The notes: generated by a model from the letters alone, not told the origin. A stretch of DNA of 64,000 nucleotides from an uncultured Bacteroidales bacterium (GCA_964477035.1 CAYZCW010000003.1:189231-253230); one strand, 5' to 3'. Counted from the stretch's first letter, positions 13,849-55,250 are shown. Made by a program: numbers and translations.

Positions 13849-13936
13849 TCGGGTCGGGATTGGGTCCTGGCGCCGCCCGTGAAAAGCGGCCACGCCCGGA
13901 GGGCACAAAATTACATAATCGACGGGAAAGGCCGGT

Positions 13937-14770: not shown

Positions 14771-16238
14771 ATTTGCCCGTGATTCGTTCCACAACCAATT
14801 TTGAACTGATGACCGCCATGGGGAGCCCTGTTCCCGGCACCGTGCTGGCCCCCACGTAAAAGACATTGCCAAACTGTTCGTCCTCATTTTTCGGACGGAA
14901 CCCCCCGATCTGGTTCAGGTCATGCCCCAGTCCGAGGCCGCTTCCCTTGTAAAGATTGAATGCATCCCGCCACTCTACCGGAGTCAGGACCGTGCGGGAG
15001 ATGATGTGCTTTTTGACATCCACCCCGATGCGTTCACTCAGGTCGTTGATGATGTTGTCCGCGATCTCGTCCCGGTCGGACCAATCCGGTTTGAACCGCA
15101 TATCCGGCACCGGGCACAACACGAACAGGCTCTCGCAGCCTTCCGGAGCCGCTTCCGGATCGGATTTCGACACCACATTCACATAATAATAGGGCTGGTC
15201 CAGTTTGATGGAGTTCTTGAATATCTTGCCCGAGTACTCCTCGAAGTTGTTGCCCAGAAAATAGTTGTGCAGCGGGATGCCCTCCAGCTTGGTGTCCAGT
15301 CCGAGGTACATGGTAAACGGTGCCAGGGTCCACTGCATTTTATCCAGTTTCTCCTCCCGGAATTTTTTGCGTCCGAACACCTGGTGCCGGAAATAGGCGG
15401 CATCGGCATTCACCACAAACAGGTCTGCCTCCCACCTTTTGCCGTTTTGGTCCACAAAAGCCTTCAGCTCCTTGCCCTGGTATTCATAGCCGGTCACTTC
15501 GGTGTTGTAATGGACAACGATCCCGGCCTTGTCGATCTCTTTATTCAGCCCCTCCACGATCCGGTACATGCCCCCTTCCACATTGTGGTAGCCGTCATGC
15601 ACCAGCTCGGTATACGACAAAATGGTATAAATGGCCGGGGTATCGAAGGGCGTTGCTCCCAGAAAAAAGGCCACCAGGGAAAAGATCTCCTTGACCTCGC
15701 GCGACTCAAAATGCCGCTCCATTTCCCGCCAGACCGAACGGAACAATTTGGGCGAGTACTTCACAGGCACCCGCAGCAGGGTGAGCAGGTACTGCCAGAC
15801 GGAGTCATAGTTCCTTTTGAGCACCAGGTATTCGGTATCGTGGAAAAAAGCCCCCGCCGAGGCCAGAAAACGGTCCATCTTTTCCCGGAAGTTGGGCTCC
15901 ACCCCTTCAAATTCAAGGGCAAGCTTATCCAGGTCGCGGTGGATCATGAACCTCCGGTCCGACCCCCTGAAGTGCACTGCATACAGGGTCTCCAGCTCCC
16001 GGAAGGCAAAAGGCATCTCCTCCAGACGGGCGTCCTCGAAGAACTCCCTGAACTCATAGGTCATGCTGAAAAAGGTGGGTCCCAGATCGAAGGTAAACCC
16101 GTCTTTTTTCAATTGGTTGAGCCGGCCGCCCGGCTGGTGGTATTTTTCCACCATCTCCACCCGGTATCCCCTCCTGCTCAGGCGCAGCGCCGTGGTCAAA
16201 GCCCCCAGCCCCGTTCCGACGATCAGTACTTTTTTCAT
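14751..16238 (-). CDS. crtI: Phytoene desaturase
   Basis: IVGTGLGA FAD motif, GGRL, FDLGPTFF and C-terminal VGASTVPGTGLPM; overlaps the crtB start. Confidence 0.9.
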   Translation of the reverse strand: MKKVLIVGTGLGALTTALRLSRRGYRVEMVEKYHQPGGRLNQLKKDGFTFDLGPTFFSMTYEFREFFEDARLEEMPFAFRELETLYAVHFRGSDRRFMIHRDLDKLALEFEGVEPNFREKMDRFLASAGAFFHDTEYLVLKRNYDSVWQYLLTLLRVPVKYSPKLFRSVWREMERHFESREVKEIFSLVAFFLGATPFDTPAIYTILSYTELVHDGYHNVEGGMYRIVEGLNKEIDKAGIVVHYNTEVTGYEYQGKELKAFVDQNGKRWEADLFVVNADAAYFRHQVFGRKKFREEKLDKMQWTLAPFTMYLGLDTKLEGIPLHNYFLGNNFEEYSGKIFKNSIKLDQPYYYVNVVSKSDPEAAPEGCESLFVLCPVPDMRFKPDWSDRDEIADNIINDLSERIGVDVKKHIISRTVLTPVEWRDAFNLYKGSGLGLGHDLNQIGGFRPKNEDEQFGNVFYVGASTVPGTGLPMAVISSKLVVERITGKYGPVHA

Positions 16239-16387
16239 GTATACATCCTTTTCACTGGCAAAAAGAATTTTGCTTCTTAAACAAACCGTGGGTGCCGGAA
16301 TCTGCCGCCATGCCCTTTGGGACTGTCTGCCATTGATTTTATTTGTGTTCCCTTTGAACTCCCGGAAAAAATTGCCGTTATTTGAGT

Positions 16388-17887
16388 ATGGAACAATCAA
16401 GTGCCGTTATTGGTTCAGGCATAGGAGGAATTGCTTCGGCCATCCGGTTGGCCGTCAAGGGATACAAGGTAAGTGTTTTTGAGCAAAGCCACGCTCCCGG
16501 AGGCAAACTTTCTCAACTCCGCCTGGGCGGTTTTCGCTTCGACACCGGCCCCTCCCTGTTCACCCTGCCCCAGCTGGTCGATGAACTCTTCCTGCTTTGC
16601 GGGGAGGAGCCGCGTGAACATTTCCGGTATGCCGCCCTGGACACCTCCTGCATTTACTTCTGGGAAGACGGCACGCGCATCCGGGCATGGAAGGACACAG
16701 AGGCCTTCTCGAAAGAGGTGGAGGAGCGGACAGGGGTACCGGAAGAGAAGCTGCGGGGCCATCTTGACAAAAGCCGTGAGCTCTACCGGATCACCGCCGA
16801 TGTGTTCCTGTTCAATTCTTTTCACAAGCCTTCCCGGCTTCTGAGGCCTCCTGCATGGAAGGCCCTGACGGGCCTGCACCGGCTGGATGCGCTGACCACC
16901 ATGCACCGGCGCAACCAGAAGCGGTTCGGACACCCCAAAGTGGTGCAGCTGTTCGACCGTTATGCCACCTATAACGGCAGCAACCCTTACCGCACCCCGG
17001 CCACCCTGAATGTGATCGCCCACCTGGAGCACAACATGGGAGCCTGGTTCCCCGAGAAGGGCATGTATTCCATCGTGGAGTCCCTGGTGGCGCTTGCCCG
17101 CCGGCAGGGAGTGGCATTCATTTTCAACAGTCCGGTCGAAGAAGTGGTTCTTCGCCATGGAAGGGTGGCCGGCCTTCGTGAAGGGGGCAGATTCCATCCC
17201 TTCGACAGGGTGGTGAGCGACATCGACATCGTGCGCCTTTACCGGGACCTGCTGCCCGGAACGGTCCTGCCCAAAAAGCAGACCCGGGGGGAGCGGTCCA
17301 CTTCGGCACTGATCTTTTACTGGGGGGTGGACCGGGATTTCCGGGAACTGGGCCTGCACAACATCTTGTTTTCGAACGACTATGAAAGAGAGTTCCGGCA
17401 CCTTTTCGAAACGAAAACCCTTCCGGACGACCCGACCGTGTATGTGTTCATCAGCTCCAGGCAGGTTCCCGGCGATGCCCCGGCCGGGTGTTCGAACTGG
17501 TATGTCATGATCAATGCTCCGGAGAACGTGGGGCAGGACTGGGACGGACTCATTGACAGGACCCGTACGGATATTCTGGAGAAGATCCGCCGCTGCCTGA
17601 ACATCGACCTCGGACCCCATATTGTGCAGGAGGCGGTGGCCGACCCCAGGACCATCGAACGGGACACCGGCTCCTACCGCGGATCCCTTTACGGTTTGAG
17701 CTCCAACGACCGCTTTGCGGCATTCAACCGGCATGCCAATTTCAGCAGAAAGTTTAAGAACCTGTACTTTGCAGGCGGCAGCGTGCATCCCGGAGGCGGC
17801 ATCCCGCTCTGCCTGGCCTCCGCAAAAATCATCGACCAGGAAATCCCACCCGCCAACCACCAAAAGCCATTAACCAATAACCAATAA
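16388..17887 (+). CDS. crtD: 1-hydroxycarotenoid 3,4-desaturase
   Basis: VIGSGIGG, FDTGPSLFTLP, FDRYATYNGSNP, GSLYGLSSN and GGSVHPGGGIPLCL, characteristic of Bacteroidetes CrtD. Confidence 0.85.
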   Translation: MEQSSAVIGSGIGGIASAIRLAVKGYKVSVFEQSHAPGGKLSQLRLGGFRFDTGPSLFTLPQLVDELFLLCGEEPREHFRYAALDTSCIYFWEDGTRIRAWKDTEAFSKEVEERTGVPEEKLRGHLDKSRELYRITADVFLFNSFHKPSRLLRPPAWKALTGLHRLDALTTMHRRNQKRFGHPKVVQLFDRYATYNGSNPYRTPATLNVIAHLEHNMGAWFPEKGMYSIVESLVALARRQGVAFIFNSPVEEVVLRHGRVAGLREGGRFHPFDRVVSDIDIVRLYRDLLPGTVLPKKQTRGERSTSALIFYWGVDRDFRELGLHNILFSNDYEREFRHLFETKTLPDDPTVYVFISSRQVPGDAPAGCSNWYVMINAPENVGQDWDGLIDRTRTDILEKIRRCLNIDLGPHIVQEAVADPRTIERDTGSYRGSLYGLSSNDRFAAFNRHANFSRKFKNLYFAGGSVHPGGGIPLCLASAKIIDQEIPPANHQKPLTNNQ

Positions 17888-17901
17888 CCAACAGCCAACA
17901 A
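17860..17901 (+). repeat. Six degenerate heptamer units (CCAAYAR)
   Basis: ccaaaag ccattaa ccaataa ccaataa ccaacag ccaacaa; the array contains the crtD TAA stop and ends 3 nt before the cruF ATG. Confidence 0.8.
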
Positions 17902-17904
17902 CCC

Positions 17905-18567
17905 ATGCCCCCCAAAAAACCCATCCTCCCTTCCCCCACCGCCGGAAAGCTGCTGATGCTGTATTACGGAGTGGGCGTGGCCGGATTGACCCACCCGGCG
18001 ACCCGGGACCTGTTCACCGGCCTCATGCCCTGGTCGATCCTGGGCAGCACCCTCCTGCTCCTTTTCTACCACCGGGACTGGACCTGGCGGCAGGTGCTCA
18101 TCCTTTTGGGCACCGCCGTGGCCGGATTCCTGGTCGAAGTGGCCGGGGTGCTCACCGGCCAGGTTTTCGGGGAATATGCCTACGGACCGGCCCTGGGCTG
18201 GCAGGTGCTGGAGACCCCATTGCTCATCGGCGTGAACTGGGCCATGCTGATCTACTGCACCCACACTTTGTTCGAAGGAAGCGGACTTTCCTGGCCCATC
18301 CGGCTGTTTGGCGGCGCCCTGCTGATGGTTGGCTACGATTTCTATATGGAGCCTGTTGCCATCGGGCTGAACATGTGGCAATGGGGAGGCGGGGGCATCC
18401 CCCTGCAGAATTACCTGGCCTGGTTTGTCATTTCCCTGGTCTTTCTCGCCGCCATGCAACTGGGCGGGATCCGCACCGGCAACCGCCTCGCACCCTGGCT
18501 GTTCTGGGTACAGGCTGCCTTTTTCCTTCTCTTAAACTTTGGCCTTCAGGCCGTTGTTCCGAATTAA
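17905..18567 (+). CDS. cruF: Carotenoid 1,2-hydratase (CruF/DUF422 family)
   Basis: Multi-TM protein with EVAGVLTG..FGEYAYG..LG, PLLIGVNW, D..MEPVA and PLQNYLAWF. Confidence 0.85.
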   Translation: MPPKKPILPSPTAGKLLMLYYGVGVAGLTHPATRDLFTGLMPWSILGSTLLLLFYHRDWTWRQVLILLGTAVAGFLVEVAGVLTGQVFGEYAYGPALGWQVLETPLLIGVNWAMLIYCTHTLFEGSGLSWPIRLFGGALLMVGYDFYMEPVAIGLNMWQWGGGGIPLQNYLAWFVISLVFLAAMQLGGIRTGNRLAPWLFWVQAAFFLLLNFGLQAVVPN

Positions 18568-18602
18568 GCGCAAGAATCCGCTGCAGAAAACCCCATCCTT
18601 CC

Positions 18603-19223
18603 ATGATCGAAGCCCGGCACCACCCCCTGTATGAACGCTTCTTCGGCGCCTATACCGGCCTGAAGATGCGGCGCCATTTCAGCTCGTGGGACATTGAAGG
18701 CCGCTTCACGGACGGGGGGAAGGCGGTGTTGCTCGTGGGCAACCATTTCAGCTGGTGGGATGGTTTTATCGGCCAGAAGCTGGCCGACAGGGTGTTTCAC
18801 CGCAAAATCCACGTCATGATGCTGGAGGAGCAATTGTCCGGCCGCCGCTTTCTGAGCCGGTTGGGGGCCTTCTCTATCCGCCCCGGAAGCCGCGACGCCC
18901 TGAATTCCCTCCGTTATGCCACGGAGCTGCTGCAAAACCCCGGGAACCTGCTTCTGCTGTTTCCCCAGGGGCGTTTCGAATCACACCACCAGTTTCCCCT
19001 CCATTTCGAGCGGGGATGGTTTCGCATTGCGCTGGGCGCCCCCCCGGAAACCCACCTGGTTTTCGCCGCCAACCTGACAGATTGGTTCGCCTCTCCCAGA
19101 CCCCGGCTGTTTACCTATCTTCAGCAGCACGAACTCGGGGACTTTGACGATGCCGGCCGGCTGGAGAATGCCTACAATGACTTTTTAGGAAACGCCATCG
19201 GGCAGCAAAACCAACGGATATGA
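18603..19223 (+). CDS. PlsC-like acyltransferase, probable carotenoid glycoside acyltransferase
   Basis: NHFSWWDGF (NHxSxxD) and LFPQG motifs; sits between cruF and the glycosyltransferase gene. Confidence 0.8.
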   Translation: MIEARHHPLYERFFGAYTGLKMRRHFSSWDIEGRFTDGGKAVLLVGNHFSWWDGFIGQKLADRVFHRKIHVMMLEEQLSGRRFLSRLGAFSIRPGSRDALNSLRYATELLQNPGNLLLLFPQGRFESHHQFPLHFERGWFRIALGAPPETHLVFAANLTDWFASPRPRLFTYLQQHELGDFDDAGRLENAYNDFLGNAIGQQNQRI

Positions 19224-21082
19224 TCGTATTGGCCTGGTTCCTGGTTGGATTCCTGCTGCTGCGAATGATGGTGGCAGGGGTCAACCTGCTGTCCCCCACC
19301 CGCCTGCCGAAGGGCGATCCGGGCGACACCCCCCTCGTGTCGGTGCTGATTCCGGCCCGGAATGAACAAGACAGCATCGGCTCCCTGCTTGAAAGCCTGG
19401 CCTCTCATGATTATGAAAACCTGGAGGTTATTGTTTACGACGACCTCTCGGATGACAAAACCGCGGAGGTGGTGGCACAGCATGCCCGTCAGGACCCCCG
19501 CATCCGGCTGATCCGGGGCACGGGGCTGCCCCCGGGCTGGTTGGGAAAAAACCACGCCTGCCACCACCTGGCCATGGAAGCGCAGGGATCCTGGCTGCTG
19601 TTCCTTGATGCCGATGTCACAGCACAACAGGGGCTCATCCGGAATTTGCTTGCCCGTGCCGGCCGTTTCGGCCTTGGGCTGCTCTCCGTCTTCCCTGGTC
19701 AGCGCATGGAAACCCTGGGCGAAAAAGCCGTGGTTCCCCTGATGAACTGGATTTTGGTCAGCATGCTGCCGCTCCCGCTCACCCGCCTGTCCGCCCGCCC
19801 CTCCCTGTCGGCCGCAAACGGGCAGTGCATGCTTTTCCACTCCGGCACCTACCGGCAACATCGTTTTCACGAGCGGGTAAAGGACCAGAAGGTGGAAGAC
19901 ATCCGGATCTTCCGCATGGCAAAAAGGCTGGGCGTTCCTGCGGAAACCCTGCTGGACAACGGGCAAGTCAGTTGCCGCATGTACCGCAGTTTCAGAGAGG
20001 CCATCCAGGGGTTTTCCAAAAATGTATTCGAATTCTTCGGAGGCAGTGCCTGGCTGGCCTGGGGTTTCACCCTGGCGACCGTTCTGGGATTCGTGCCCGT
20101 CTGGCTCGCCATGGGGGCATGGCAGGCCGCTGCCTTCGTGGGCGGCGGGGTGCTGATTCGCCTGCTGTCGGCATGGGCCAGCCGTCAAGCGGCAGGCGGC
20201 GCCCTCCTGCTCGGTCCCCTGCAACAATTTTCCCTGCTGATGGTGGTCAGCGCAGGACTTCTTCAGAGGGTCCGTAAAAGCACGACCTGGAAAGGCAGGC
20301 GGGTCGACCTTCCGAGAAAGGTCGTTAAATCCGCTGTGGTCCTGTTTTTCCTCCTCGTCGGATGGGCAGGCAGCCTCCCCGCCGGGCAACAGGCAAGCCC
20401 GTCCCTGAAAACTTACCAGGACGCCATTTACGAAGCCTATGTGCTGAATCGTATGCCCCAGTGGGTCAGTACGCTGCAGGACATGGAAGCGGCTTACCGG
20501 CGGCAGCCAGGCACGGCCCTGCTTTACGACATCCTGCTGGCCCAGTACGGACTGATCGGGTATTACCTGGGAACGGAAGACAATGCAAGCGGAGGCTCCC
20601 TGCTGGACAAGGCAGAAAAAAACCTGGCAACCCTGGCCCGTGAGCCGGGCTACAAGGCAGCGACACGGGCGTTCGAGGGGGCTTTTCTGGCTTTCCGGAT
20701 CTCCCTTCGTCCCATCCGGGCGGTGCAGCTGGGGCCACGCAGTTACCGCCGCATCGATGAAGCCATCGAGGCGGACCCGGATTATGCCCGGGCCTGGATC
20801 GAAAAGGGCAACGCCGCCTTTTTCACCCCGCCCGTTTTCGGAGGTTCCAAAACCGAAGCGATCGACCATTATACCAAGGCCCTACAACTGCTCGAAGCCC
20901 GCATGCCCAACAACCACCGCTGGCTCTACCTCAGCACCCTGGTGTCCCTTGCCAACGCCTACGAAAAGACGGGAGACCTGCCCCGGGCCATCCGCACCCT
21001 GGAAAAGGCCCTGGCCTTTGAGCCCCGCTTTACCTGGGTAAGGGATGAGATGCTGCCCCGCCTGCGAACCATTCAGCAATAA
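19220..21082 (+). CDS. GT2 carotenoid glycosyltransferase (CruC/CrtQ-like) fused to a C-terminal TPR-like domain
   Basis: VSVLIPARNE, YDDLSDD, GWLGKNHAC, LDAD, ANGQC and EDI motifs ending at WKGR. A hydrophobic helix and helical TPR-like repeats follow in the same frame. Confidence 0.82.
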   Translation: MIVLAWFLVGFLLLRMMVAGVNLLSPTRLPKGDPGDTPLVSVLIPARNEQDSIGSLLESLASHDYENLEVIVYDDLSDDKTAEVVAQHARQDPRIRLIRGTGLPPGWLGKNHACHHLAMEAQGSWLLFLDADVTAQQGLIRNLLARAGRFGLGLLSVFPGQRMETLGEKAVVPLMNWILVSMLPLPLTRLSARPSLSAANGQCMLFHSGTYRQHRFHERVKDQKVEDIRIFRMAKRLGVPAETLLDNGQVSCRMYRSFREAIQGFSKNVFEFFGGSAWLAWGFTLATVLGFVPVWLAMGAWQAAAFVGGGVLIRLLSAWASRQAAGGALLLGPLQQFSLLMVVSAGLLQRVRKSTTWKGRRVDLPRKVVKSAVVLFFLLVGWAGSLPAGQQASPSLKTYQDAIYEAYVLNRMPQWVSTLQDMEAAYRRQPGTALLYDILLAQYGLIGYYLGTEDNASGGSLLDKAEKNLATLAREPGYKAATRAFEGAFLAFRISLRPIRAVQLGPRSYRRIDEAIEADPDYARAWIEKGNAAFFTPPVFGGSKTEAIDHYTKALQLLEARMPNNHRWLYLSTLVSLANAYEKTGDLPRAIRTLEKALAFEPRFTWVRDEMLPRLRTIQQ

Positions 21083-42689: not shown

Positions 42690-44183
42690 ATGAAAACTCC
42701 TTCCGATACCCCGCTTTATGTTTACAACACCCTGAGCCGCCGTAAGGAGGTGTTTGAGCCACTGACCCCGCCCTTTGTGGGCATGTATGTCTGCGGTCCG
42801 ACGGTCTACGGGGACGCCCACCTGGGCCATGCACGCCCGGCAGTCACCTTCGACATGGTCTTCCGCTACCTGAGGCATTTGGGTTACAAGGTCCGCTATG
42901 TGCGTAACATCACGGACGTGGGTCACCTGGAGAACGACGCCAGCGAAGGGGAGGACAAGATCCAGAAGAAGGCCAGGCTGGAGCAGCTGGAGCCCATGGA
43001 GGTGGTCCAGTTTTACACCGACCGCTACCATGAGGACATGGCCAGCCTCAATGTTCTCAAACCCAGCATCGAACCCCGGGCCTCGGGACACATCACCGAA
43101 CAGATCGAGATGGTCCGGGCCATCCTGAAGTCGGGCTATGCCTATGAAACGGATGGCTCGGTTTATTTTGACGTGGCAGGGTACCACCGCAACCACCACT
43201 ACGGCAAGCTCAGTGGCCGGCAGATCGAAGACCTCATGGCCAGCACCCGCGAGCTGGAGGGACAGGAACAGAAACGCAATCCGGTGGATTTCGCCCTGTG
43301 GAAAAAGGCCGGCCCGGAGCACATCATGCAGTGGCCGTCCCCCTGGGGAAACGGTTTCCCGGGCTGGCACCTGGAATGTTCGGCCATGAGTACCAAATAC
43401 CTGGGCGAGGTGTTCGACATCCACGGGGGAGGGCTCGACCTGCTGTTTCCCCACCACGAATGCGAGATCGCCCAGTCGAACGCCGCCACCGGGAAAGAGG
43501 CTGTCCGTTACTGGCTGCACAACAACATGATCACCATCAACGGCAAAAAAATGGGGCGGTCCCTGGGCAACTTCATCAACCTTCGGGAGTTTTTCGCCGG
43601 CAGCCATAAGGCCCTGGACAAGGCCTATTCCCCCATGAACCTCAGGTTTTTCATCCTGCAGGCCCATTACCGCAGCACGCTGGACTTCAGCAACGAGGCG
43701 CTGCAGGCAGCCGAGCGTGGCCTCAGGCGGCTGCTGCAGGCCCACGACACACTGCAACGGCTCCGGCCCGCCGAAGTGTCGACTGCCGACATTTCAGGCA
43801 TCGGACCGGCCTGCTACGAGGCCATGAACGATGATTTCAACAGCCCGGTAGCCATCGCCCAGCTTTTCGAAGCCGTGCGCTTCATCAATTCCGTGGCCGA
43901 CGGCAAGGACCGGCTGAACAAGGCAGACCTGGATTCACTCAGGGATACCTTCAGGGTATTCCTGGTGGATGTGTTTGGCTTGCTTCCAGAGTCCGGTCCC
44001 GAATCCCTTCAGAGCCAGGAAAAAATCATCGAGGGACTCGTGCAGGTGGTCCTCGGCATCCGGCAACAGGCCCGAGCCGGCAAGGACTGGGAAACTTCCG
44101 ACCGCTTGCGTGATGCCCTGAAGGAACTTCACATCATCATCAAGGACGGCAAGGAGGGCACCAGCTGGTCCTTCGGGGAATGA
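42690..44183 (+). CDS. cysS: Cysteine--tRNA ligase
   Basis: [38 protein letters not shown] and KMGRS. Confidence 0.97.
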
Positions 44184-47100
44184 CCCCCCGGCAAATACAT
44201 CCCGTCATGACGACCCATACTCCAGGAATGCACCCCCCCCGGTGGGAACTCCATGTGTCCCGCAGCGCGCGTGAACGGTACCATTTCGGGGAAGAACTGT
44301 TTTCAAACGACGGACATTTGGTGTGCAGCGACTTTCATGCCGCAAGAGAGCTGGCCTACCGGATCAACCGGGAGCGCCCCCCCGTTGCGCAGGTAGCTCC
44401 CGGGACACTGTTTGCCGCCGGCCTGATGGACGAGGCTTTTCATCTGGTCATCAGGGCCTGGGAAACACACCATGGCATCCGCCCCTTCGAATTGGCCCTT
44501 CCCCGTCTGGAAGCGCGGTTGGGAAAGCAAGGGCTGCATCAACTCCTCCTCGATTTCATTCAGTGCTTCCCCCCGACTCCGGTCTTTCGGGGAGAGCTGG
44601 CAGCGAAACAGTACCTTGGCCGCCGGTCGGGAGAACGCACCCACAGGGCCCTGGCAGCCGAAGAAGCCCTCATGCTGGAATTGTCCGACTTCAACCCTGC
44701 CAATGAAAGGCTCAGGGAATTGTTCGACCGGCGTTGCCTGCCGGACGGGGCCCTCTTCGGGCGGCTGATGGACGAACTGGAGGCATTTTTCCGGGAACAG
44801 CCCGGCATGGGACCGGACAATGTGGACGTGATCCGCTTCCTGAAAACCCCGGTCCTGCTGTTTCCGGACGACATCGGGGCGCAACTCCGGCACGTCCTTG
44901 AGCACTGGAAGGAATACCTGCCCGAATCCATGCGCACCCTGTTGTTGCGGGGCACGGACCTGATCCGGGAGGATGCCCGCCGGGGTGGTGGCGGACCCGG
45001 TCCGGCCCTGGTGCCGCAATACGGGCCAACGGGTGGCAGGACGAGGGAAGGGCATGGGGGACAAGCAGGTTCAGACACCGGTCCCGCAGGCGACGAGGAA
45101 TACGAACACTTCACCCCCGACACCCACTGGATGCCCCGCGTGGTCATGATGGCCAGGAACACCTATGTATGGCTTGACCAGCTTTCAAAGAAATATGAAC
45201 GGCCCATCAGGAGGCTGAACGAGATCCCCTCCCAGGAGCTGGACACCCTGGCGGCAAGTGGGTTCAATGGTCTTTGGCTGATCGGGATCTGGGAAAGAAG
45301 CAGCGCCTCCCGCCGCATAAAGCACCTGACGGGAAATCCCGACGCCGCATCTTCCGCCTACTCCCTGTACGATTATGAGATTGCCAGGGACCTGGGAGGG
45401 GAAGAGGCATTCCGTGACCTGGACCACCGCAGCCGGGAGCGGGGCATCCGCCTTGCCAGCGACATGGTGCCGAACCATACAGGCCTGTATTCGCGCTGGA
45501 TGGTGGAACACCCTGAGTATTTCATCCAGACCCGGGTGCCTCCCTTTCCCGCCTATCGCTTCACGGGGGAAAACCTTTCGGACCACCCGGACATAGACAT
45601 CCGGATCGAAGATGGTTATTACAACCGGTCGGATGCCGCGGTGGTGTTCCGGCGCCATGACCTGCGCCTGGATGACATCCGGTATATTTATCACGGGAAT
45701 GACGGCACCCACATGCCCTGGAACGACACCGCCCAGCTGGACATGCTCCGGCAGGAGGTACGGCAGGCCGTCATCGGAAAGATCATGGAGGTGGCAGGCC
45801 GCTTCTCCATCATCCGGTTCGATGCGGCCATGACCCTGGCCAAAAAACATTTTGCCCGGCTGTGGTATCCCCGGCCCGGCAGCGGCGGGGACATTCCCTC
45901 ACGCGCAGACCATGCCATGAGCCGGGAGGCATTCGACCAGTGGTTCCCAAAAGAGTTCTGGAGGGAGGTCGTCGACCGCATCAACCAGGAGATGCCTGAC
46001 ACCCTCCTGCTGGCGGAGGCCTTCTGGCTGATGGAAGGTTTTTTTGTCCGGACCCTCGGCATGCACAGGGTGTACAACTCGGCCTTCATGCATATGCTAC
46101 GGGACGAGGAAAATGGAAAATACCGCGAGCTGATCACCAACACCCTGGAGTTCGAACCGGAAATCCTCAAACGGTACGTGAACTTCATGAGCAACCCGGA
46201 CGAGGAAACGGCCATCCGGCAGTTCGGCACCGGAGACAAGTATTTCGGGGTCTGCACCCTGATGGCGACCCTGCCCGGGCTGCCCATGTTTGCCCACGGG
46301 CAGCTGGAGGGCTACACCGAAAAATACGGGATGGAATACCAACGGGCTTATTACAACGAAAGCCCCGACAGCGGGTTGATGGAACGGCATCAGAGGGACA
46401 TTTTTCCCTTGCTCCGGCGCCGCCACCTGTTCAGCGACGTGGCCCATTTCTGGCTGTTCGATTATGTGACGGCCCAGGGAACCGTCAATGAGAACGTGTT
46501 CGCCTATACGAACCGCTCGGGAAGCGAGTCCGCCCTGGTCCTTTTCAACAACCGCTATGAGACCGCCGGCGGGCGGATCCACCATGCCAGGCCCAAGCGG
46601 ACAAAACAGGATGACGACGGGCCGGCCACAAGCCTTTCCCTGGGGGAGGCATTGGATTTGCAGGCGGGACAGGGCCATTATTATTCCTGCCGGGAACAGG
46701 TATCCGGACTGGAGTTCCTGCGCCGGGGGGAAGACATCTGCCGACAGGGGTTTCACTGGGACCTGCAGGGGTTTGAATACCGGGTATTTCTTGATTTCAA
46801 GAGGATGGAAGAAGACCCGGGGCTCCTGGAAGAGCTCTGCCGGAGCCTGGAAGGGCACGGCACCGGCTCGCTTTCCAGGGAGCTGGACCGGCTTCGTTAC
46901 CGGGAGGTGTTCGATGCCTTCCTGGCCCTGTTCCATGCCACTGAACCATCCCGGAATGAGTTAGCCGGCCTCAGGGAACGGATGAAGGCGTTCGCCCTGA
47001 AGGCCACTGTGGCACTGGCTCCGGACACCAGGGCAGAGGAAGCCGCAGTCCATTTTGAGGACTACCTGCTGGCCTGCCTGGAAGCCAAGGCGTGGTTCCG

Positions 47101-47773
47101 GGCCCACGTCCCGGGATCACCCCCGGAGGTTCCTTCATCCGGCAGCGAATCTCCGGCCGGGGATGGATCCTGGCATGCTCCGGAGCCCATCCGCGGTCCC
47201 GAAGACCATCTGATCCTGCGGGCATGGATGGCCCTTCGCTCCCTGCATCAGCCCCCGGCACAATCGCCCTCCCCGGCATCCAGGCAGGCGGCCCGGCGGC
47301 TGAAATGGCCACTGCAGCAAGTGCTGGAGCAGACAGGCAAGGGACAACAACTGGCTGCACGGCAGGCATTGCTGATCCAGCTCCTTGTCCATTACGGGGG
47401 CATGGCCCCGGACGCCCCGCTCATCCTGACCCTGCTCGAAGACCCCGATGCCAGGGTGCTGTGCGGGGTAAACCAGTACAAGGGGGTCTGGTATTTCAGC
47501 AAGGAAGGTTTCGGGGAACTGGCACGCTGGTTGTTCACCCTGCATGCCTTCAGCCATTTCGCCAGGCAGGCGGAATCCGGCCCGTCAACAACCCACGGCC
47601 CACCGCCCTCCGGCGAAAAACAAGGCCAGGCAGGCGGACAGGACCTTCTCAAAGAGAAGATCGGCGAGGCCAGCAGCAGCCTGGAACGGCTGCTGGAGCT
47701 GTCCGGACAGTCGGAATACAGGCTGGACCGCTTCCGGAAGGCCCTCGGGGATTTACGGCCATCTTATTCCTGA
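44180..47773 (+). CDS. Very large GH13 alpha-amylase-family protein
   Basis: DMVPNH, RFDAAM (nucleophile), AEAFW (acid/base) and NPDE; long N- and C-terminal helical extensions; start overlaps the cysS stop (ATGA). Confidence 0.85.
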
Positions 47774-47863: not shown

Positions 47864-48520
47864 ATGCATCCGCCCATCACCCAGGAGGTAACAAACGAAT
47901 TCATGCAATCCCTGCTTTCGGGTGATCGCCGGGAGGGGGCACGCATCATTCAGGACCTGTTGTTTTCGGGTGTCCCGGTCCAGAGAGCCTATGAAGAAGT
48001 GATCAAAAAAGCCCTTTACCATGTCGGGGAATTGTGGGAGCACAACCAGATCACGGTCGCCGAGGAACACCTGGCCACCTCCGTTTCGGAAGCCATCATG
48101 AATGAATTGTTCCCCGCGCTGGTATCCCGTGCCCGGACCAACAGGAAGGTGCTGCTTGGCTGCGTGGAGAACGAATTGCACCAGGTGGGGGTGAAAATGG
48201 TGGCCGATGTGTTTGAAATGAAGGGATGGGACACATTCTTCCTGGGAACCGGCATCCCGGTCCACGAAATGATCCGGTATGCAAAATCCCTCCGGCCCGA
48301 TCTGTTCGCCCTGTCGATTAGCATTTACTTTCATCTGCCCGTGCTGGAAGCCATGATTGGCCAAATCCGGCAAGAATTTCCCGAAACCAACATCCTGGTG
48401 GGCGGGCAGGGCTTCCGGCACGGAGGACGGGAGGTCCTGCAAAACCTGCCCGGGGTCCTGCTTATTGACGACCTCTATTCCCTGGAGCAATATATTGACG
48501 GGCTGGCTGAAACAGGCTGA
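47864..48520 (+). CDS. Stand-alone cobalamin-binding protein with CarH-type motifs and no DNA-binding domain
   Basis: W-x9-EH (WEHNQITVAEEH), E-x-H-x2-G-x41-S-x-S-x26-GG; four-helix cap plus Rossmann domain only. Confidence 0.9.
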   Translation: MHPPITQEVTNEFMQSLLSGDRREGARIIQDLLFSGVPVQRAYEEVIKKALYHVGELWEHNQITVAEEHLATSVSEAIMNELFPALVSRARTNRKVLLGCVENELHQVGVKMVADVFEMKGWDTFFLGTGIPVHEMIRYAKSLRPDLFALSISIYFHLPVLEAMIGQIRQEFPETNILVGGQGFRHGGREVLQNLPGVLLIDDLYSLEQYIDGLAETG

Positions 48521-48546: not shown

Positions 48547-49020
48547 ATGGATAAAAAAACACTGATTGAATCCGCCACCCGGCTGGGGCCGTTTTCCCCC
48601 ACCACGGCAACTGGCTATGCGGACAAAAGCGACCGGCTGATCGCCCGCATCAATGAGGCCCTGCTGTCGCGTGCCGATACAAAATCCATCGTCGGGGACA
48701 TCAACCTGGCCATGATGAAGGACAACCATGCCAACCACGTGCGTTTCATCGCCTCCATCCTGAAGCATTTCGATGCAGAGGTGCTGACCGAAACCGTTTT
48801 ATGGGTTTTCAGGGCCTACCGCAACCGGGGATTTGCTTCCACCTACTGGGCCGCCCAGCTCAGCGCCTGGTTCCCCATCCTGCGGGAGGAGCTGCCCCGG
48901 GAAATTTATGAGGAAGTACGCCCCCTGTACGAATGGATGCAGGTAAACATCCCCCTGTTTGAGAAACTGTCTCACGAACAATCAGAGAACGGAGAATCCC
49001 CATACCAAAACGGTCACTAA
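48547..49020 (+). CDS. 157-aa all-helical globin/phycobiliprotein-like protein
   Basis: Amphipathic helix pattern; by-eye alignment to recalled allophycocyanin helices E-H; no Cys; stop overlaps the next ATG (TAATG). Confidence 0.7.
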   Translation: MDKKTLIESATRLGPFSPTTATGYADKSDRLIARINEALLSRADTKSIVGDINLAMMKDNHANHVRFIASILKHFDAEVLTETVLWVFRAYRNRGFASTYWAAQLSAWFPILREELPREIYEEVRPLYEWMQVNIPLFEKLSHEQSENGESPYQNGH

Positions 49021-50192
49021 TGGAGGACTTGCCCCAAAGGCTGATTCCCTGGATCGGGGAGATCCGGCAGGCGGCCGCAGACAGCAAGGCCCTGTGCATC
49101 GCCCTGTTTTCGACCGGAGACCGCAAGCTGGTCCGGGCGAATGCTGCTGCCGTCCACCTGCTTCGGGGCGGAGGTCCCGAACGGCTGGTCAATCCGACTT
49201 TCGACAAGCTGCTGGAATGCCGGGGAAATGAGCCTGCCTATGAAGGGCTCCTCACCCTGGGCGACAACGAAAGCATGAACACCACCATCCAGGCCAAGGT
49301 ATTTGTCCGCGATGGGGAAATGCTCATCACGGGAGAGGTCGACCTGCCGCGCATCACGGACCTGAATACAAAGATGGCCCGGATCAACCAGGAAAACAAC
49401 AACCTGCAGCGACAGCTCCTGAAGGAGAAAATCCAGGTGGAGCGCATGATGGAGGAGCTCAGGGAGACCAACCGACAACTCGGGTTGCTGAACCTGGAAA
49501 AGAACCGCTTCCTGAGCATGGCGGCCCACGACCTGCGCAACCCCATATCCACGGCCATTTCCTATGTGGACATCCTGCTCAACAGCGGGGGGCTGTTCCC
49601 GGAAGACAAACGAACAGGCTTTCTGCACACCATCGATGAGCGGCTGAAGTTCTCCCTGAAGCTGATGAACGAACTGCTGGACGTCTCCCGGATCGAGACC
49701 CGGAGCATCCGCCTGGAGGTCCGCGAACACAGTTACCGGGACCTGCTCGAACAGACCATCCGGTTCAACCAGCTGGTGGGGCGGTGGAAGGAGATTTCCG
49801 TCGGATTGGCATGCCCGGGTGATCCGCTGGTATTTGCCTTCGACCGGAATAAAATGGAGCAGGTCCTCAACAACCTGATAAGCAACGCCATCAAATATTC
49901 TCCGAAAGGGTCGAAGGTCCGCATTCAGGTGGACAGGGAAAAGGAAGCGGTCCATACCGCCGTCTGCGACCAGGGCGTGGGGATCCGCGAAGATGAACTG
50001 GAAGGCATCTTCGAACCGTTCCGCAAATCCAGTTCCAGGCCGACCGCCGGAGAGAGCAGCACCGGACTCGGCCTGGCCATCACCAAAAAGATCATTGAAG
50101 AACACGGGGGAGGCATCACGGTGGAAAGCAGCCCGGGCAAGGGATCCTGTTTCCGCTTCACCCTTCCTGTTTCAAGGCCTCCGTCCGGCTGA
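49020..50192 (+). CDS. Soluble sensor histidine kinase with an unassigned N-terminal domain and coiled coil
   Basis: H-box AAHDLRNP, N-box NNLISNAIKYS, DQGVGI, and G2 box STGLGLAI; no TM segment. Confidence 0.9.
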   Translation: MEDLPQRLIPWIGEIRQAAADSKALCIALFSTGDRKLVRANAAAVHLLRGGGPERLVNPTFDKLLECRGNEPAYEGLLTLGDNESMNTTIQAKVFVRDGEMLITGEVDLPRITDLNTKMARINQENNNLQRQLLKEKIQVERMMEELRETNRQLGLLNLEKNRFLSMAAHDLRNPISTAISYVDILLNSGGLFPEDKRTGFLHTIDERLKFSLKLMNELLDVSRIETRSIRLEVREHSYRDLLEQTIRFNQLVGRWKEISVGLACPGDPLVFAFDRNKMEQVLNNLISNAIKYSPKGSKVRIQVDREKEAVHTAVCDQGVGIREDELEGIFEPFRKSSSRPTAGESSTGLGLAITKKIIEEHGGGITVESSPGKGSCFRFTLPVSRPPSG

Positions 50193-50219
50193 CCCGAAAG
50201 GGCGTTACGTCTTTTTAAC

Positions 50220-50307: not shown

Positions 50308-52737
50308 ATGGCTGCCACTTTTTCGAACGACCCGAACGACAATGCCGCAGAGGAGCAGATCCTGCGTGACAACGAAGCCCTCTACCGCAACCTCTTCGAA
50401 CACGCCAACGATGCCATCACCATCATGGAAGGGGAGCGTTTTATCAACTGCAACAAGAAGGCCGAGGCCCTGTTCGGAGCCCCCAGGGAGCAGATCATCG
50501 GGAAAACGCCCGGGGATTTCTCCCCCCGCCATCAGGCCGACGGAAGCCTTTCCGAAGCGGCCGCCAGGGAAAAGATTGAAGCCGTGCACCAGGGAAAACC
50601 CCAATTCTTCGAGTGGGTGCATCAGACACTGGACGGACAGCCGTTCAATGCGGAGGTCAGCCTGAACCTCAGTCCGGTCAGGGACCGCAAAATCGTGCAG
50701 GCCATCGTCCGGGATGTGAGTTCGCGAAAGGAACACGAAAAGGCACTCAGGGAGTCCCGGCAGATGCTGCGCACGGTGATCGACACGGTACCGGTCCGGG
50801 TTTTCTGGAAGGACCTGGACCTGAAGTACCTGGGGTGCAACAGGCCGTTTGCCGCCGATGCCGGGCTGGGCCATCCCGATGAGGTGGTGGGCCGAACGGA
50901 TTTTGATATGGGCTGGTCCGATCAGGCGGAGCTGTACCGGCAGGACGACCGGGAGGTCATCCAAAGCAGGCAGCCAAAGCTAGACTATGAAGAGGCCCGG
51001 AGCACCCCTGAGGGTAAAAAAATCTGGCTGAAAACCAGCAAGGTTCCCCTGATGGACTCCGGCGGAAAACCCATCGGGGTCTTGGGAACCTATGAGGACA
51101 TCACGGAAAAGAAGCGTGCGGAACAGGTTCAGCGGGTTTTCTACGGGATAGGTAACACCATGATGCACAGCGAAAACATGGAGTCGCTGATCCAAAAGAT
51201 CCGGGAGTTGCTGGAGGGCCTCATAGACGCCCCCAATTTCTACATCGCCCTGTACGACGAGTCGTCGGGCATGCTCTCCATCCCTTACGAAAAAGACGAA
51301 AAAGACTCCATCGACACCTGGCCTGCCCACCGTTCGGCCACGGGGCTGGTGGTGGAGCAAAAGAAATCCCTCTTGCTGAAGAAAGCAGATGTGGAGCGCT
51401 TGCTGAAAGAAGACGTGATCGACCTGATCGGCACCCCCAGCGAGGTATGGCTTGGCGTGCCCCTTTTCAGCAAGGACAAGGTGATCGGGGCCATCGCCCT
51501 GCAAAGCTACACCGACCCCCACGCCTTCGATGAAAACACCATCCAGATCCTGGAGTTTGTCTCCCACCAGATCAGCCTGGCCATCCAGCGCAAGCAGGCA
51601 GAAAAAGACCTGGTTGGCGCCAAGGAACAGGCCGAGCAGAACGACCGGCTGAAGACCGCTTTCCTTAACAACCTGTCCCACGAGATCCGCACTCCCCTGA
51701 ATGCCATCATCGGTTTTTCCGAGTTCCTGAATGAACCCGGGCTCGACCCCGGACGCATTGCCCACCTGACCGACATCATCTGCAAGAGCAGCAACCAGTT
51801 GCTCGGTATCATTGAGGACATTGTGAACATTTCCAAGATCGAAGCCGGGATCATGGAGGCCTGGGAGAAGGAAACGAACCTGAAAGACTTGTTTGCCAGC
51901 GTTTACAACCAACTTCAGATCAGTGCTTCCGAAAAGGGCCTGCGGTTCAGGCACCATCTCGACCTCAATGAAAGCCAGGCCATGGTACGCACCGACGAAA
52001 CCAAGCTGACGCAGGTAATCAGCAACCTGGTCGACAACGCCATCAAATTCACGGACCAGGGCCATGTGGAGTTTGGCTGCACCCTGAAGGACGGGGAGCT
52101 GCGGTTTTATGTGGCGGATACCGGGCCAGGTATCGACCCTTCGTTACATGATAAAATATTCGAGCGCTTTCACCAGGCAGAGACCGGACACGCCCATACG
52201 AAGGGGGGGATGGGACTGGGTCTGCCCATTTCAAAATCGTTCGTCGACCTGCTGGGAGGGAGGATCTGGCTGGAGTCGAAACCAGGTTCCGGTACGGTGT
52301 TCTTTTTCACCTTGCCATGGAAGCCGGCTGCAGGCAAACGGAACGAAGAAACCGGCACGGAAGCCGCCAGTCTGAAGGTAAGGAAAACCATCCTGGTGGC
52401 CGAAGACGAGGAGAACAACTTCGAGCTCGCCCGGGTGATCCTTTCCATACAGGATGTCGCTCTGCTGCATGCCTGGAATGGTCAGGAAGCGGTGGATCTC
52501 TGCCGCGACCACCCGGAGATCGACCTCGTGCTGATGGACATCAAGATGCCGGGGATGAACGGGTACGACGCCACGCGCATCATCAGGGAAATCAGGCCGG
52601 CCCTGCCGGTCATCGCCATGACGGCCTATGCGCTGCCGGGCGACCGGGAGAAGGCACTGCAGGCCGGATGCAATGATTACCTTGCGAAGCCGGTATCGCT
52701 GAAGGAATTCATGACCATGGTAAAGAAACACCTCTAA
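50308..52737 (+). CDS. PAS-PAS-GAF hybrid histidine kinase with C-terminal receiver
   Basis: Two PAS/PAC domains, GAF (WLGVPL, IGAIALQSY), SHEIRTPLNAI, HATPase and REC (VAEDE, MDIKMP, KP). Confidence 0.92.
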   Translation: MAATFSNDPNDNAAEEQILRDNEALYRNLFEHANDAITIMEGERFINCNKKAEALFGAPREQIIGKTPGDFSPRHQADGSLSEAAAREKIEAVHQGKPQFFEWVHQTLDGQPFNAEVSLNLSPVRDRKIVQAIVRDVSSRKEHEKALRESRQMLRTVIDTVPVRVFWKDLDLKYLGCNRPFAADAGLGHPDEVVGRTDFDMGWSDQAELYRQDDREVIQSRQPKLDYEEARSTPEGKKIWLKTSKVPLMDSGGKPIGVLGTYEDITEKKRAEQVQRVFYGIGNTMMHSENMESLIQKIRELLEGLIDAPNFYIALYDESSGMLSIPYEKDEKDSIDTWPAHRSATGLVVEQKKSLLLKKADVERLLKEDVIDLIGTPSEVWLGVPLFSKDKVIGAIALQSYTDPHAFDENTIQILEFVSHQISLAIQRKQAEKDLVGAKEQAEQNDRLKTAFLNNLSHEIRTPLNAIIGFSEFLNEPGLDPGRIAHLTDIICKSSNQLLGIIEDIVNISKIEAGIMEAWEKETNLKDLFASVYNQLQISASEKGLRFRHHLDLNESQAMVRTDETKLTQVISNLVDNAIKFTDQGHVEFGCTLKDGELRFYVADTGPGIDPSLHDKIFERFHQAETGHAHTKGGMGLGLPISKSFVDLLGGRIWLESKPGSGTVFFFTLPWKPAAGKRNEETGTEAASLKVRKTILVAEDEENNFELARVILSIQDVALLHAWNGQEAVDLCRDHPEIDLVLMDIKMPGMNGYDATRIIREIRPALPVIAMTAYALPGDREKALQAGCNDYLAKPVSLKEFMTMVKKHL

Positions 52738-52748
52738 GCCCCCAGCTC

Positions 52749-55250
52749 ATGGCCCGGATCCGTCTGATCATGTTTCTGCTGGCTGCCATTTCCCTGGCCC
52801 CGGAGTGGGTAGCCGCCCGGCAGCCGGGCTACCGTCCCGACATCCCTGACACCATCCTGGTCAAGGGGGACCACTACTACCCTCCCTATGAGTTCATCAA
52901 CGAACAGGGGGCGCCGGATGGTTTCAACGTGGAACTGTTTGAGGCCCTGGCCAGGGACCTGGGGCTCACCTATAAGCTGGAGCTCGGCCCCTGGAGCCAG
53001 GTCCGGGAGGAGCTGGAGGCAGGCCGGATCCATGTCATCATGGGACTGATGTCCTCTCCGGGGCGGGCGGAGAAAATGGATTTCGGCATCCCGCACAGCG
53101 TGATGACCCAGGGCATTTTTGCCCGCAAGGGAGACCATTACGCTTCGCTCGACGACCTCCGGGGCAGGGAGGTGGTGGTTCAGGACAAGGACCTGATGCA
53201 TGACATCCTGCTGGAAACCGGACTGGCAGGCGAGATCATCCCCGTCACGGACCAGCTGGAGGCCCTGATGCTGCTGGAGCAGGGACAGCACGATGCGGCC
53301 ATCCTGGGCAACTTCCAGGGAGCCTACCTGATCCGCCGGCACGGGCTGCGAAACGTGGTACTTCAAACCTCCAACCTCGAACCCCGGAAATACGGCATGG
53401 CCGTGCGCAAGGGGGATGCAGAGCTGCTGGCCCTGCTCAACCTGGGGATTTACCAGCTCAAGGTCAGCGGAGAGTACGACCGCCTCTATACCAAATGGTT
53501 CTCGGTGTATGAAGAAAGGGACTTCTGGAAGGAATATGGCCCCTACCTGTTGATCCTGGGGGTCGTTGTCGCCGGACTGGCCCTGTTTAACCTGCTGCTG
53601 CGCCGGCAGGCGAAACGCATTACAGCAAAACTCCGTGAAAGCGAAAGCCGTTACAGCAATGTGTTTAAGAACAACCATGCGGTGATGCTGCTGGTCGACC
53701 CGGACGACGGGCGCATCGTCGATGCGAACCCCGCCGCGGAAAAGTTCTACGGCTGGCCGCGGGAAGAACTGTTGGAGATGTTCATGCACCAGATCAACAC
53801 CCTGCCCCCCGAGGCAGTCCAGGCCGAAATCAGGAAAGCCAGGGACCAGCAAAAAGACCGCTTCAGGTTCCGGCACCGCCTGGCCGGCGGGGAGGTCCGG
53901 GACGTGGAGGTGTTCAGCGGCAGGATCCCCTTCGGGGGCAAGGCCCTGCTGTACTCCATCGTCAACGATGTGACGGACCAGATCAAGGCGGAGCAAACCA
54001 TCCGGAAACGAACAGAGGAGTTATCCACCCTGCTGTCTGTCAGCCAGGCCCTGGCTGTCACCAACGACCTGGGCCGGGTTTTCCAGACCATCGTGGAGCA
54101 GGCTGTCGGCCTCCTTAAGCTCGAAACCGCGGCGATCTACCTTCTGGAAGAAGACATGCTTTACCTGGGCGCCACCACCCCGGCCCTGCCGCCGGATTTT
54201 CCGGAAAAACTGCGCAAGGCGCCACTGAGAGACCACCCCATGATCGAAAAGACCCTCTCTTCGAAGCAGCCACTCAGGATCTTTGAAATGGTTGATGAGG
54301 TCCTGACAGAAGCCGAGCGGCAGATCCAGCAGGTGCGTGGGATCCGCTCCATGCTCATGGTGCCCCTGGCGGTCGAAAGCCGGGTGGCCGGGGTACTGGT
54401 CGTCGGAACGCAAAAGTCGACAAGGCATTTCTCCGACCATGAAATCACCCTATACCAGACCATTGCGCCCCAGGCGGCCCTGGTGATCGAAAATGCCAGG
54501 CTTTACAAAAAAAGCCTGCTTTATGCCTCTGAACTGGAGGAGCGCGTCAGTCAGCGCACGGCCCAGCTGGAAGCCTCCAACAAGGAGCTGGAAGCCTTCG
54601 CCTATTCGGTATCGCACGACCTGCGTGCACCGCTTCGGGCCATCGACGGGTTTACCCGCATCCTGCTGGAGGACTACCGGGAGGATATGGACCAGGAAGG
54701 ACAAAGGGTCTGCCGGGTCATCACGGAAAACGCACAAAAAATGGGGCAACTGATCGACGACCTCCTGTCGTTTTCCCGCCTGGGCCGGTCCGAACTGCAA
54801 TGGTACGAGATCGACATGGCCAAAATGGCCCACATGGTATTCCACGAGCTGTCGCAGGGGATGGATAAGGGCAGGATCGAATTCCTTACAGACCCCCTCC
54901 CGGTGGTTCAGGGGGACCCCACCATGATGAAACAAGTCTGGAGCAACCTGATCGGCAATGCCCTGAAGTTCACCGCCAGGGAAGCGAAGGCGCGCATCCG
55001 CATCCATGCTCAGGAAAATGACGGTCAGCCTGTTTTTGTCGTAGAGGACAATGGGGTGGGCTTCGACGGGCAGTATGCTGAAAGGATATTCGGTGTCTTC
55101 CAGCGGCTGCACCCGGAGAGGGAGTTCCCGGGAACGGGTGTCGGGCTGGCCATTGTGCAGCGGATCATCCACCGCCACGGGGGAGCAGTCCGCGCGGAAG
55201 GGGAGCCCGGGAAAGGGGCGAAATTCTTTTTCTCCGTCCCGGTCCGATAA
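52749..55250 (+). CDS. SBP_bac_3 periplasmic-PAS-GAF histidine kinase (Cph1-like kinase core)
   Basis: Signal peptide, YYPPYEF, TM helix, PAS, GAF, AYSVSHDLRAPLR, NLIGNALKF and GTGVGLAIV. Confidence 0.92.
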   Translation: MARIRLIMFLLAAISLAPEWVAARQPGYRPDIPDTILVKGDHYYPPYEFINEQGAPDGFNVELFEALARDLGLTYKLELGPWSQVREELEAGRIHVIMGLMSSPGRAEKMDFGIPHSVMTQGIFARKGDHYASLDDLRGREVVVQDKDLMHDILLETGLAGEIIPVTDQLEALMLLEQGQHDAAILGNFQGAYLIRRHGLRNVVLQTSNLEPRKYGMAVRKGDAELLALLNLGIYQLKVSGEYDRLYTKWFSVYEERDFWKEYGPYLLILGVVVAGLALFNLLLRRQAKRITAKLRESESRYSNVFKNNHAVMLLVDPDDGRIVDANPAAEKFYGWPREELLEMFMHQINTLPPEAVQAEIRKARDQQKDRFRFRHRLAGGEVRDVEVFSGRIPFGGKALLYSIVNDVTDQIKAEQTIRKRTEELSTLLSVSQALAVTNDLGRVFQTIVEQAVGLLKLETAAIYLLEEDMLYLGATTPALPPDFPEKLRKAPLRDHPMIEKTLSSKQPLRIFEMVDEVLTEAERQIQQVRGIRSMLMVPLAVESRVAGVLVVGTQKSTRHFSDHEITLYQTIAPQAALVIENARLYKKSLLYASELEERVSQRTAQLEASNKELEAFAYSVSHDLRAPLRAIDGFTRILLEDYREDMDQEGQRVCRVITENAQKMGQLIDDLLSFSRLGRSELQWYEIDMAKMAHMVFHELSQGMDKGRIEFLTDPLPVVQGDPTMMKQVWSNLIGNALKFTAREAKARIRIHAQENDGQPVFVVEDNGVGFDGQYAERIFGVFQRLHPEREFPGTGVGLAIVQRIIHRHGGAVRAEGEPGKGAKFFFSVPVR

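Follow-up and report, generated by a model that had tools for sequence, protein, structure and literature searches.

A stand-alone B12-binding protein as the probable photosensor subunit of a split, kinase-coupled photoglobin/B12 module in an uncultured Bacteroidales bacterium

An uncultured Bacteroidales bacterium carries a compact cassette of three genes, encoding a stand-alone B12-binding protein, a small globin and a soluble histidine kinase, within the 64,000-nt stretch of DNA analyzed here (GCA_964477035.1, CAYZCW010000003.1:189231-253230; hereafter the window). The cassette is probably a split, kinase-coupled photoglobin/B12 light-sensing module, an arrangement that was already described computationally in 2021. 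Its first product, a protein of 218 residues, is probably the subunit that senses light by means of bound cobalamin, within a split module of the photocobilin type coupled to the histidine kinase. We infer the identity of the cofactor, the response to light, the physical complex and the control of the kinase. The locus reveals no new kind of system, and is of note as a tractable test case and for its unusual globin pocket. To our knowledge, B12-based photoreception is experimentally established only for CarH/LitR, AerR and two fused photocobilins. The present locus is a clean example of the split form, which is much more widespread, and consists of three separate small soluble proteins. It therefore offers a tractable system to ask how cleavage of the Co–C bond reaches a kinase, which ligand the globin may hold without haem oxygenase, and why light sensors would be retained in largely anaerobic sediment and sludge bacteria. 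In optogenetics, its components might find use as a two-component module switched by green light.

The gene for the B12 protein lies on the + strand at positions 47864–48520 of the window and translates into 218 residues followed by a stop codon. The ATG at 47864 is the start codon best backed by the alignment of homologues; a gene caller instead took a TTG that precedes it by nine codons (P0002, 227 aa). Database searches found one 100% identical cluster and 182 homologues, most of them about 218 aa long. The protein starts with a B12-binding_2 four-helix-bundle cap (residues 11–82, positions 47894–48109; PF02607, E 1.2e-13), followed by a Rossmann-type B12-binding domain (residues 95–197, positions 48146–48454; PF02310, E 1.6e-17), both encoded on the + strand. 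The Pfam search gives no domain beyond these two, and the MerR helix-turn-helix, already described as missing in the initial annotation, is indeed absent.

The same annotation had assigned a complete CarH signature to this protein. Translation and a regular-expression script confirm all of its motif positions: W58 (codon 48035–48037) is followed by nine residues and then by E68-H69 (48065–48070), E104-L-H106-Q-V-G places His106 at codon 48179–48181, and exactly 41 residues separate this ExHxxG motif from S151-I-S153, with 26 more before G180-G181. All elements and both spacings (41 and 26) are thus in place. Within S-x-T/V, the last position is taken by Ser (S-I-S), as in at least 90% of the family. 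A separately published four-part SignatureFinder signature of light-responsive domains consists of GxxW, EH, GxxH and GxxxP (PMC11796333). Of these, G55-E-L-W58, E68-H69 and G128-T-G-I-P132 are present; GxxH reads N103-E-L-H106, with its His retained but its Gly replaced, a deviation that counts against the light-sensor reading.

Across 30 aligned homologues with 43–65% identity to the query, W58, E68, H69, E104, H106, G109, S151, G180 and G181 are invariant. Since these residues do not vary at such levels of identity, the W-x9-EH/ExHxxG pattern is not a chance occurrence. Glu59, directly after W58, is likewise invariant across the family alignment. W58 and E68-H69 are predicted, by analogy, to be adenosyl-pocket residues; their counterparts with known roles in the photocobilin SasPcob are Trp61 and Glu71-His72 (PMC10979010). 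H106 is the predicted lower axial ligand. The B12 domain of MetH from the same genome reads DVHDIG and is without W-x9-EH.

Sequence similarity places the B12 protein closest to photocobilins. Its best matches in the PDB are SasPcob (8J2W/8J2X, E 3e-24), followed by a B12-binding domain from a MerR-family protein of Chloracidobacterium (8JBS, E 1.5e-20), and by AbPcob in third rank (8J2Y, E 7.5e-16). TtCarH (E 4e-10) as well as methyltransferase corrinoid proteins and MetH (1e-8 or weaker, in the range of 1e-8 to 1e-6) match more weakly, and AerR (7TE2) is absent from the PDB sequence matches at E ≤ 0.01. Its nearest known relatives are photocobilins and photoglobin-B12 modules rather than CarH or AerR. 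The broader reading of a light-sensing cobalamin binder is supported, as the domains present, the signature residues and the order of the similarity matches agree with it. Among NCBIfam models, CarH/LitR (NF052513) scores best, yet its 56.3 bits are far below the cut-off of 400. Together with the PDB ranking, this classifies the protein, as judged from its sequence, as a light-sensor-type cobalamin module and not a CarH orthologue.

An alternative function would be that of a corrinoid methyl-carrier in a methyltransferase system (MtbC/MtgC/MtaC-like). In NCBIfam, MtgC (38 bits) and pyl_corrinoid (35 bits) match weakly, which points this way, and JGI labels some homologues 'methanogenic corrinoid protein MtbC1'. 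However, with MtbC at 26 bits and the lowest models (including MtaC) at 23–24 bits, all corrinoid-protein scores are far below their cut-offs of 215–450, and also below that of CarH. Compared with the corrinoid proteins of TIGR02370, MtbC, MtgC and MtaC, the present protein has ExHxxG instead of DxHxxG, and the genes around it encode a globin and kinases but no methyltransferase. With W-x9-EH invariant and a histidine kinase linked in about 74 of 80 loci, the methyl-carrier reading is effectively excluded. A maximum-likelihood tree of B12 modules (quick method) recovers the split family as its own clade with a support of 99; its deep nodes are not separated, and since MtbC-type sequences are not among the tree sequences, the tree alone cannot settle the placement relative to corrinoid proteins.

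The light-sensor-type B12 protein is followed by two tightly spaced genes on the same strand. The globin ORF (48547–49020, 157 aa) begins 26 bases downstream of the B12 gene, and its stop codon overlaps the ATG of the kinase gene (TAATG). The kinase (49020–50192, + strand, 390 aa) is soluble; an N-terminal domain of about 150 aa that is particular to the cassette precedes the HisKA and HATPase_c domains identified by Pfam. Four bases past its stop codon, a consensus scan found a terminator-like hairpin with a T-run (50196–50216, + strand), a pattern match only, which probably marks the end of a three-gene operon. Gene spacing suggests that the B12 protein, globin and kinase may be co-transcribed; a search of RNA-seq runs gave no run that contains the locus. 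A sigma-70 promoter scan, which is uninformative for Bacteroidota, found no promoter.

The N-terminal domain of the kinase (window 49020–49470) is conserved, with invariant E14, N58-P59, F61, G76 and T79. It has no match in Pfam or NCBIfam, and a profile search against the PDB returned only noise (designed TIM barrels and coiled coils). By eye, the domain looks PAS-like. It is found almost only in cassettes of B12 protein, globin and kinase, and is likely where the sensor proteins dock. Beyond the cassette, two more large sensor kinases are encoded, at 50308–52737 (PAS-PAS-GAF-HisKA-HATPase-REC) and 52749–55250 (periplasmic-binding-like-PAS-GAF-HisKA-HATPase). On the other side, positions 44180–47773 encode a 1197-aa protein with a weak match to an alpha-amylase catalytic domain (E 2e-8) and long match-free regions, whose position upstream of the cassette is kept in two syntenic loci (L001/L002).

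At least 196 species genomes from several phyla keep the cassette as a unit. A globin-profile scan of one genome per species gave 196 relatives, and linkage was counted in 80 of these loci. A B12 protein precedes the globin on the same strand in 78 of the 80, nearly always within about 25 bases, and one of the two remaining loci ends at a contig edge. In about 74, the gene immediately after the globin encodes a homologue of the kinase N-domain. The initial annotation held that a protein lacking a DNA-binding domain must act through a partner; the adjacent globin and histidine kinase accompany it in different phyla and can now be named as its predicted partners. Carriers are mostly Bacteroidales and Marinilabiliales, and also include Lutibacter, Spirochaetota, Desulfobacterota, Ignavibacteria and Oligosphaera. 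Cultured examples include Marinifilum breve, Lutibacter oricola, Geofilum rubicundum and Alkaliflexus imshenetskii. Distribution within the order of the source organism is patchy: among 151 sampled genomes, a cassette-type B12 protein is encoded in 13, the globin in 12 and the two together in 11, each of them in a different family.

Gene order and content vary to some extent. A permuted order of B12 protein, kinase and globin occurs at L052:452-2902 and L079:3079-5453, and also in genomes G026, G034, G041, G055 and G117. Since B12 proteins without a globin are found as well (L001, G019 and G147), the globin is not strictly required, which is a point against a photocobilin-type module. The closest syntenic relative (L001:6001-7893, a JGI metagenome contig) carries genes for a patatin, CysS, an amylase-like protein and the B12 protein (61% identity), with no globin. 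Its kinase is called as two overlapping ORFs of 199 and 224 aa, which reflects either a decaying cassette or a frameshift error; a PAS/GAF hybrid kinase is also encoded near this cassette. A linked response regulator is not conserved, with a receiver domain downstream in 9 of 59 loci, and this rarity counts against a photocobilin-type module that signals through a kinase.

The second protein of the cassette is a Cys-free globin with a phycobiliprotein-like fold that resembles photoglobins. Single-sequence and profile searches against Pfam, NCBIfam and the PDB returned no match, so the protein could be identified only via its fold and its fusions. An AlphaFold2 (AF2) model (pLDDT 90) was compared with known structures using Foldseek, with allophycocyanins, smURFP (which is derived from allophycocyanin) and sensor globins as the top matches (probability 1.0, TM ~0.6). 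[quoted passage not shown] One such fusion is modelled as a single compact unit (pLDDT 89, pTM 0.83), and its B12 half superposes on SasPcob (~2 Å), 8JBS and CarH at 2–3 Å. The globin therefore shows the combination by which the photoglobin family is recognized (Schneider et al. [quoted passage not shown] We predict that it docks onto the B12 protein. Three other Bacteroidales genomes also contain longer open frames of 354–368 aa (G018:C29:9572-10123, G126:C51:88384-88932 and G072:C441:3227-3769), in which the B12 module forms the first ~190 residues and is followed by an extension of ~170 aa; these may be B12-first fusions of SasPcob-like order.

Similarity to the globin of SasPcob at the sequence level is weak, which speaks against a photocobilin-type module. 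Two HMMER profiles of the globin (A1 and A3) gave no match to the globin of 8J2W, and hhalign yielded a weak alignment (E 0.002, probability 14%) that pairs W86 with Trp296, Asn60 with Asp270 and Met57 with the Cys/Thr position. In SasPcob, Asp270 anchors the bilin, and Trp296 contacts the corrin (by a hydrogen bond) and the bilin (PMC10979010). The residues in question belong to a conserved motif, M57-K-D59-N60-H61-A-N63-H64, of which N60, H61 and H64 are kept even in distant B12-fused globin relatives. A register with Asp59 opposite Asp270 was considered and dropped, as Asn60 takes that position both in hhalign and in an ungapped register fixed by W86/Trp296 and by the D/N-P-E-L/V-F/L loop.

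A bilin would also need a source. Canonical haem oxygenase (PF01126) is encoded in none of 12 carrier genomes of the order, i.e. the source genome, which is 97% complete, and 11 others. A search of the source genome for HutW/ChuW, the anaerobic haem-degrading radical SAM enzymes, gave only HemN-like matches below the cut-off. With Asn60 opposite Asp270 and no haem oxygenase in the 12 carriers, the second chromophore may be absent or different. The B12 protein could then gate the kinase directly, as a single-pigment sensor whose globin would serve as an adaptor without a chromophore or would bind something other than a bilin. Met57 at the Cys/Thr position, the retention of N60, H61 and H64 in fused relatives, the missing HutW and the existence of cassettes with only B12 protein and kinase are all consistent with this. 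Yet the strong conservation of the pocket residues suggests a bound ligand, W86 aligns, albeit weakly, with a tryptophan that contacts both corrin and bilin, and bilins might come from non-canonical sources or by uptake. Furthermore, AbPcob has a His in place of the bilin-anchoring Asp and is nevertheless biliverdin-responsive (PMC10979010). A sensor with cobalamin as its only pigment thus seems possible, though we would not favour it. 

We can likewise propose, only tentatively, what became of the pocket in this branch of globins, which is found mainly in Bacteroidota and also in Spirochaetota and Desulfobacterota. The Cys/Asp pair might have been replaced by a Met-x-Asp-Asn-His-x-Asn-His face that holds either no ligand at all or one other than biliverdin (a different tetrapyrrole, a metal or some small molecule). 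If true, the cassette would be a mechanistically distinct, B12-gated two-component sensor for light and a second input, and the first natural cobalamin photoreceptor to control a histidine kinase through separate subunits.

The genome provides a setting in which a response to light is plausible, since it encodes an adenosyltransferase, a CarH/LitR homologue and carotenoid genes. The adenosyltransferase is of the PduO type and is also present in 10 of the 11 other carriers. The CarH/LitR homologue is a separate protein with a MerR helix-turn-helix and a B12-binding part that contains W-x9-EH and ExHxxG (contig C12:55235-56116, − strand; locus L007:1099-2019, − strand); TtCarH/LitR matches both of its domains (E 2e-19). 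This protein brings the number of B12 photoreceptor-type systems in the organism to two. Its gene is directly followed by one for an ECF sigma factor, which makes a LitR-LitS-like pair. A carotenoid-type cluster at 12949–21079 of the window encodes LytB/IspH, phytoene synthase (PF00494), two phytoene-desaturase-type amine oxidases, an acyltransferase and a GT2-TPR protein; the phytoene synthase and the two oxidases lie at 13940–17884, 30 kb upstream of the cassette. This cluster is a plausible output of light sensing in the organism.

The habitat points in another direction. The window sequence is found in sludge metagenomes, and many carriers are anaerobes of sediments and digesters, where light is scarce; this counts against light sensing. 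Carriers include the strict anaerobes Oligosphaera ethanolica and Alkaliflexus imshenetskii, and the lack of a canonical haem oxygenase in the 12 carriers removes the usual origin of a second light pigment. These observations would fit a light-independent sensor of cobalamin status or redox, which reports to the kinase either the form of the corrinoid, as AerR does with hydroxocobalamin, or the oxidation state of the cobalt. Such a dark sensor is less likely, because the adenosyl-pocket residues W58 and E68-H69, which hold a photolabile adenosyl group in CarH and SasPcob, are invariant. The lack of AerR among the PDB matches, the CarH/LitR-type regulator and carotenoid genes that the same genome keeps, and the fact that the closest characterized relatives are light-switched all argue against it as well. 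We therefore consider a purely dark function unlikely.

For the photocobilin-type module that we favour, the following mechanism can be envisaged. Judging from the invariant residues, adenosylcobalamin (AdoCbl) would be bound base-off/His-on via H106, with W58 and E68-H69 holding its adenosyl group beneath the four-helix bundle. In the dark, the B12 protein may form a head-to-tail dimer, by analogy with CarH and SasPcob. Linkage, fusions and the weak alignment of W86 with Trp296 suggest that the globin would dock at the corrin edge. Green or near-UV light would then break the Co–C bond, upon which the adenosyl pocket would rearrange and the assembly change, as in the analogous systems. Gene linkage further suggests that the kinase N-domain would read this change, resulting in a shift in autophosphorylation, and that the kinase would subsequently signal to a response regulator encoded elsewhere.

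Several characterized or described systems can be compared with this cassette. AerR, a short antirepressor that binds hydroxocobalamin, targets the CrtJ repressor. Like AerR (7TE2), the present protein is a stand-alone B12-binding protein whose action would be mediated by a partner rather than by DNA binding; in contrast to AerR, with which it has no significant sequence match, it has the adenosyl-pocket residues and the linkage to a kinase.

With CarH/LitR (TtCarH, 5C8A/5C8D) it shares the two-domain cobalamin module, ExHxxG and the same W-x9-EH spacing (W131...E141-H142 in TtCarH), including a stretch, (I/G)VAEEHLA(S/T), that is common to both almost letter for letter. Unlike CarH/LitR, it is without a MerR DNA-binding domain and reaches 56 bits against the 400-bit cut-off of NF052513, and the genome has a separate CarH/LitR homologue on another contig. 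A further difference concerns the residue after the tryptophan. In TtCarH this is His132, which forms the bis-His light adduct. As Glu59 replaces it in the B12 protein, a CarH-type bis-His adduct is not expected, and the search for such an adduct that was proposed with the initial annotation would, by this analogy, likely come out negative without refuting photosensing. SasPcob, which is also without a CarH-type His after the Trp, has a water- or hydroxide-ligated light state (PMC10979010).

BBAG-2 globins (Rockwell et al. 2023, PMC10151467) resemble the present globin in that a globin of the photoglobin/phycobiliprotein clade adjoins a stand-alone B12-binding protein. They differ in clustering with a pre-PcyA bilin reductase, in having a genomic haem oxygenase and in their RGMC Cys motif, none of which is present here.

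Photocobilins are fused B12-globin proteins that bind AdoCbl and biliverdin, and in which light switches the oligomeric state and the enzyme output (Zhang et al. 2024, PMC10979010). SasPcob and AbDPcob (8J2W, 8J2X and 8J2Y) provide the best sequence match to the B12 module, and SasPcob shares with it the Trp and Glu-His adenosyl pocket, the lower axial His, the phycobiliprotein-like globin partner and the lack of a His after the Trp. Control of an enzyme output through protein contacts, as proposed here for the kinase, is another common trait. In contrast to photocobilins, the B12 module and the globin (48547–49020) are separate polypeptides, the position of Asp270 is, by the weak hhalign alignment (E 0.002), an Asn within a D-N-H-x-N-H motif, the 12 carriers examined are without a canonical haem oxygenase, and the output is a separate histidine kinase instead of a fused diguanylate cyclase or STAS/SpoIIE partners.

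The closest description of the locus as a whole comes from the work that defined photoglobins and reported that stand-alone members almost always adjoin genes for B12-binding_2/B12-binding proteins and two-component systems, none of these loci having been studied experimentally (Schneider et al. 2021, PMC8717448). That study is purely computational and names Actinobacteria, Firmicutes, Proteobacteria, Chloroflexi and Archaea, never Bacteroidetes, and its family consensus has an Asp at the pocket position that is Asn in the present branch. The hub operons it describes are otherwise matched by the present cassette: a globin beside a gene for a B12-binding_2 and B12-binding protein and a two-component kinase is the very arrangement that was called typical (PMC8717448).
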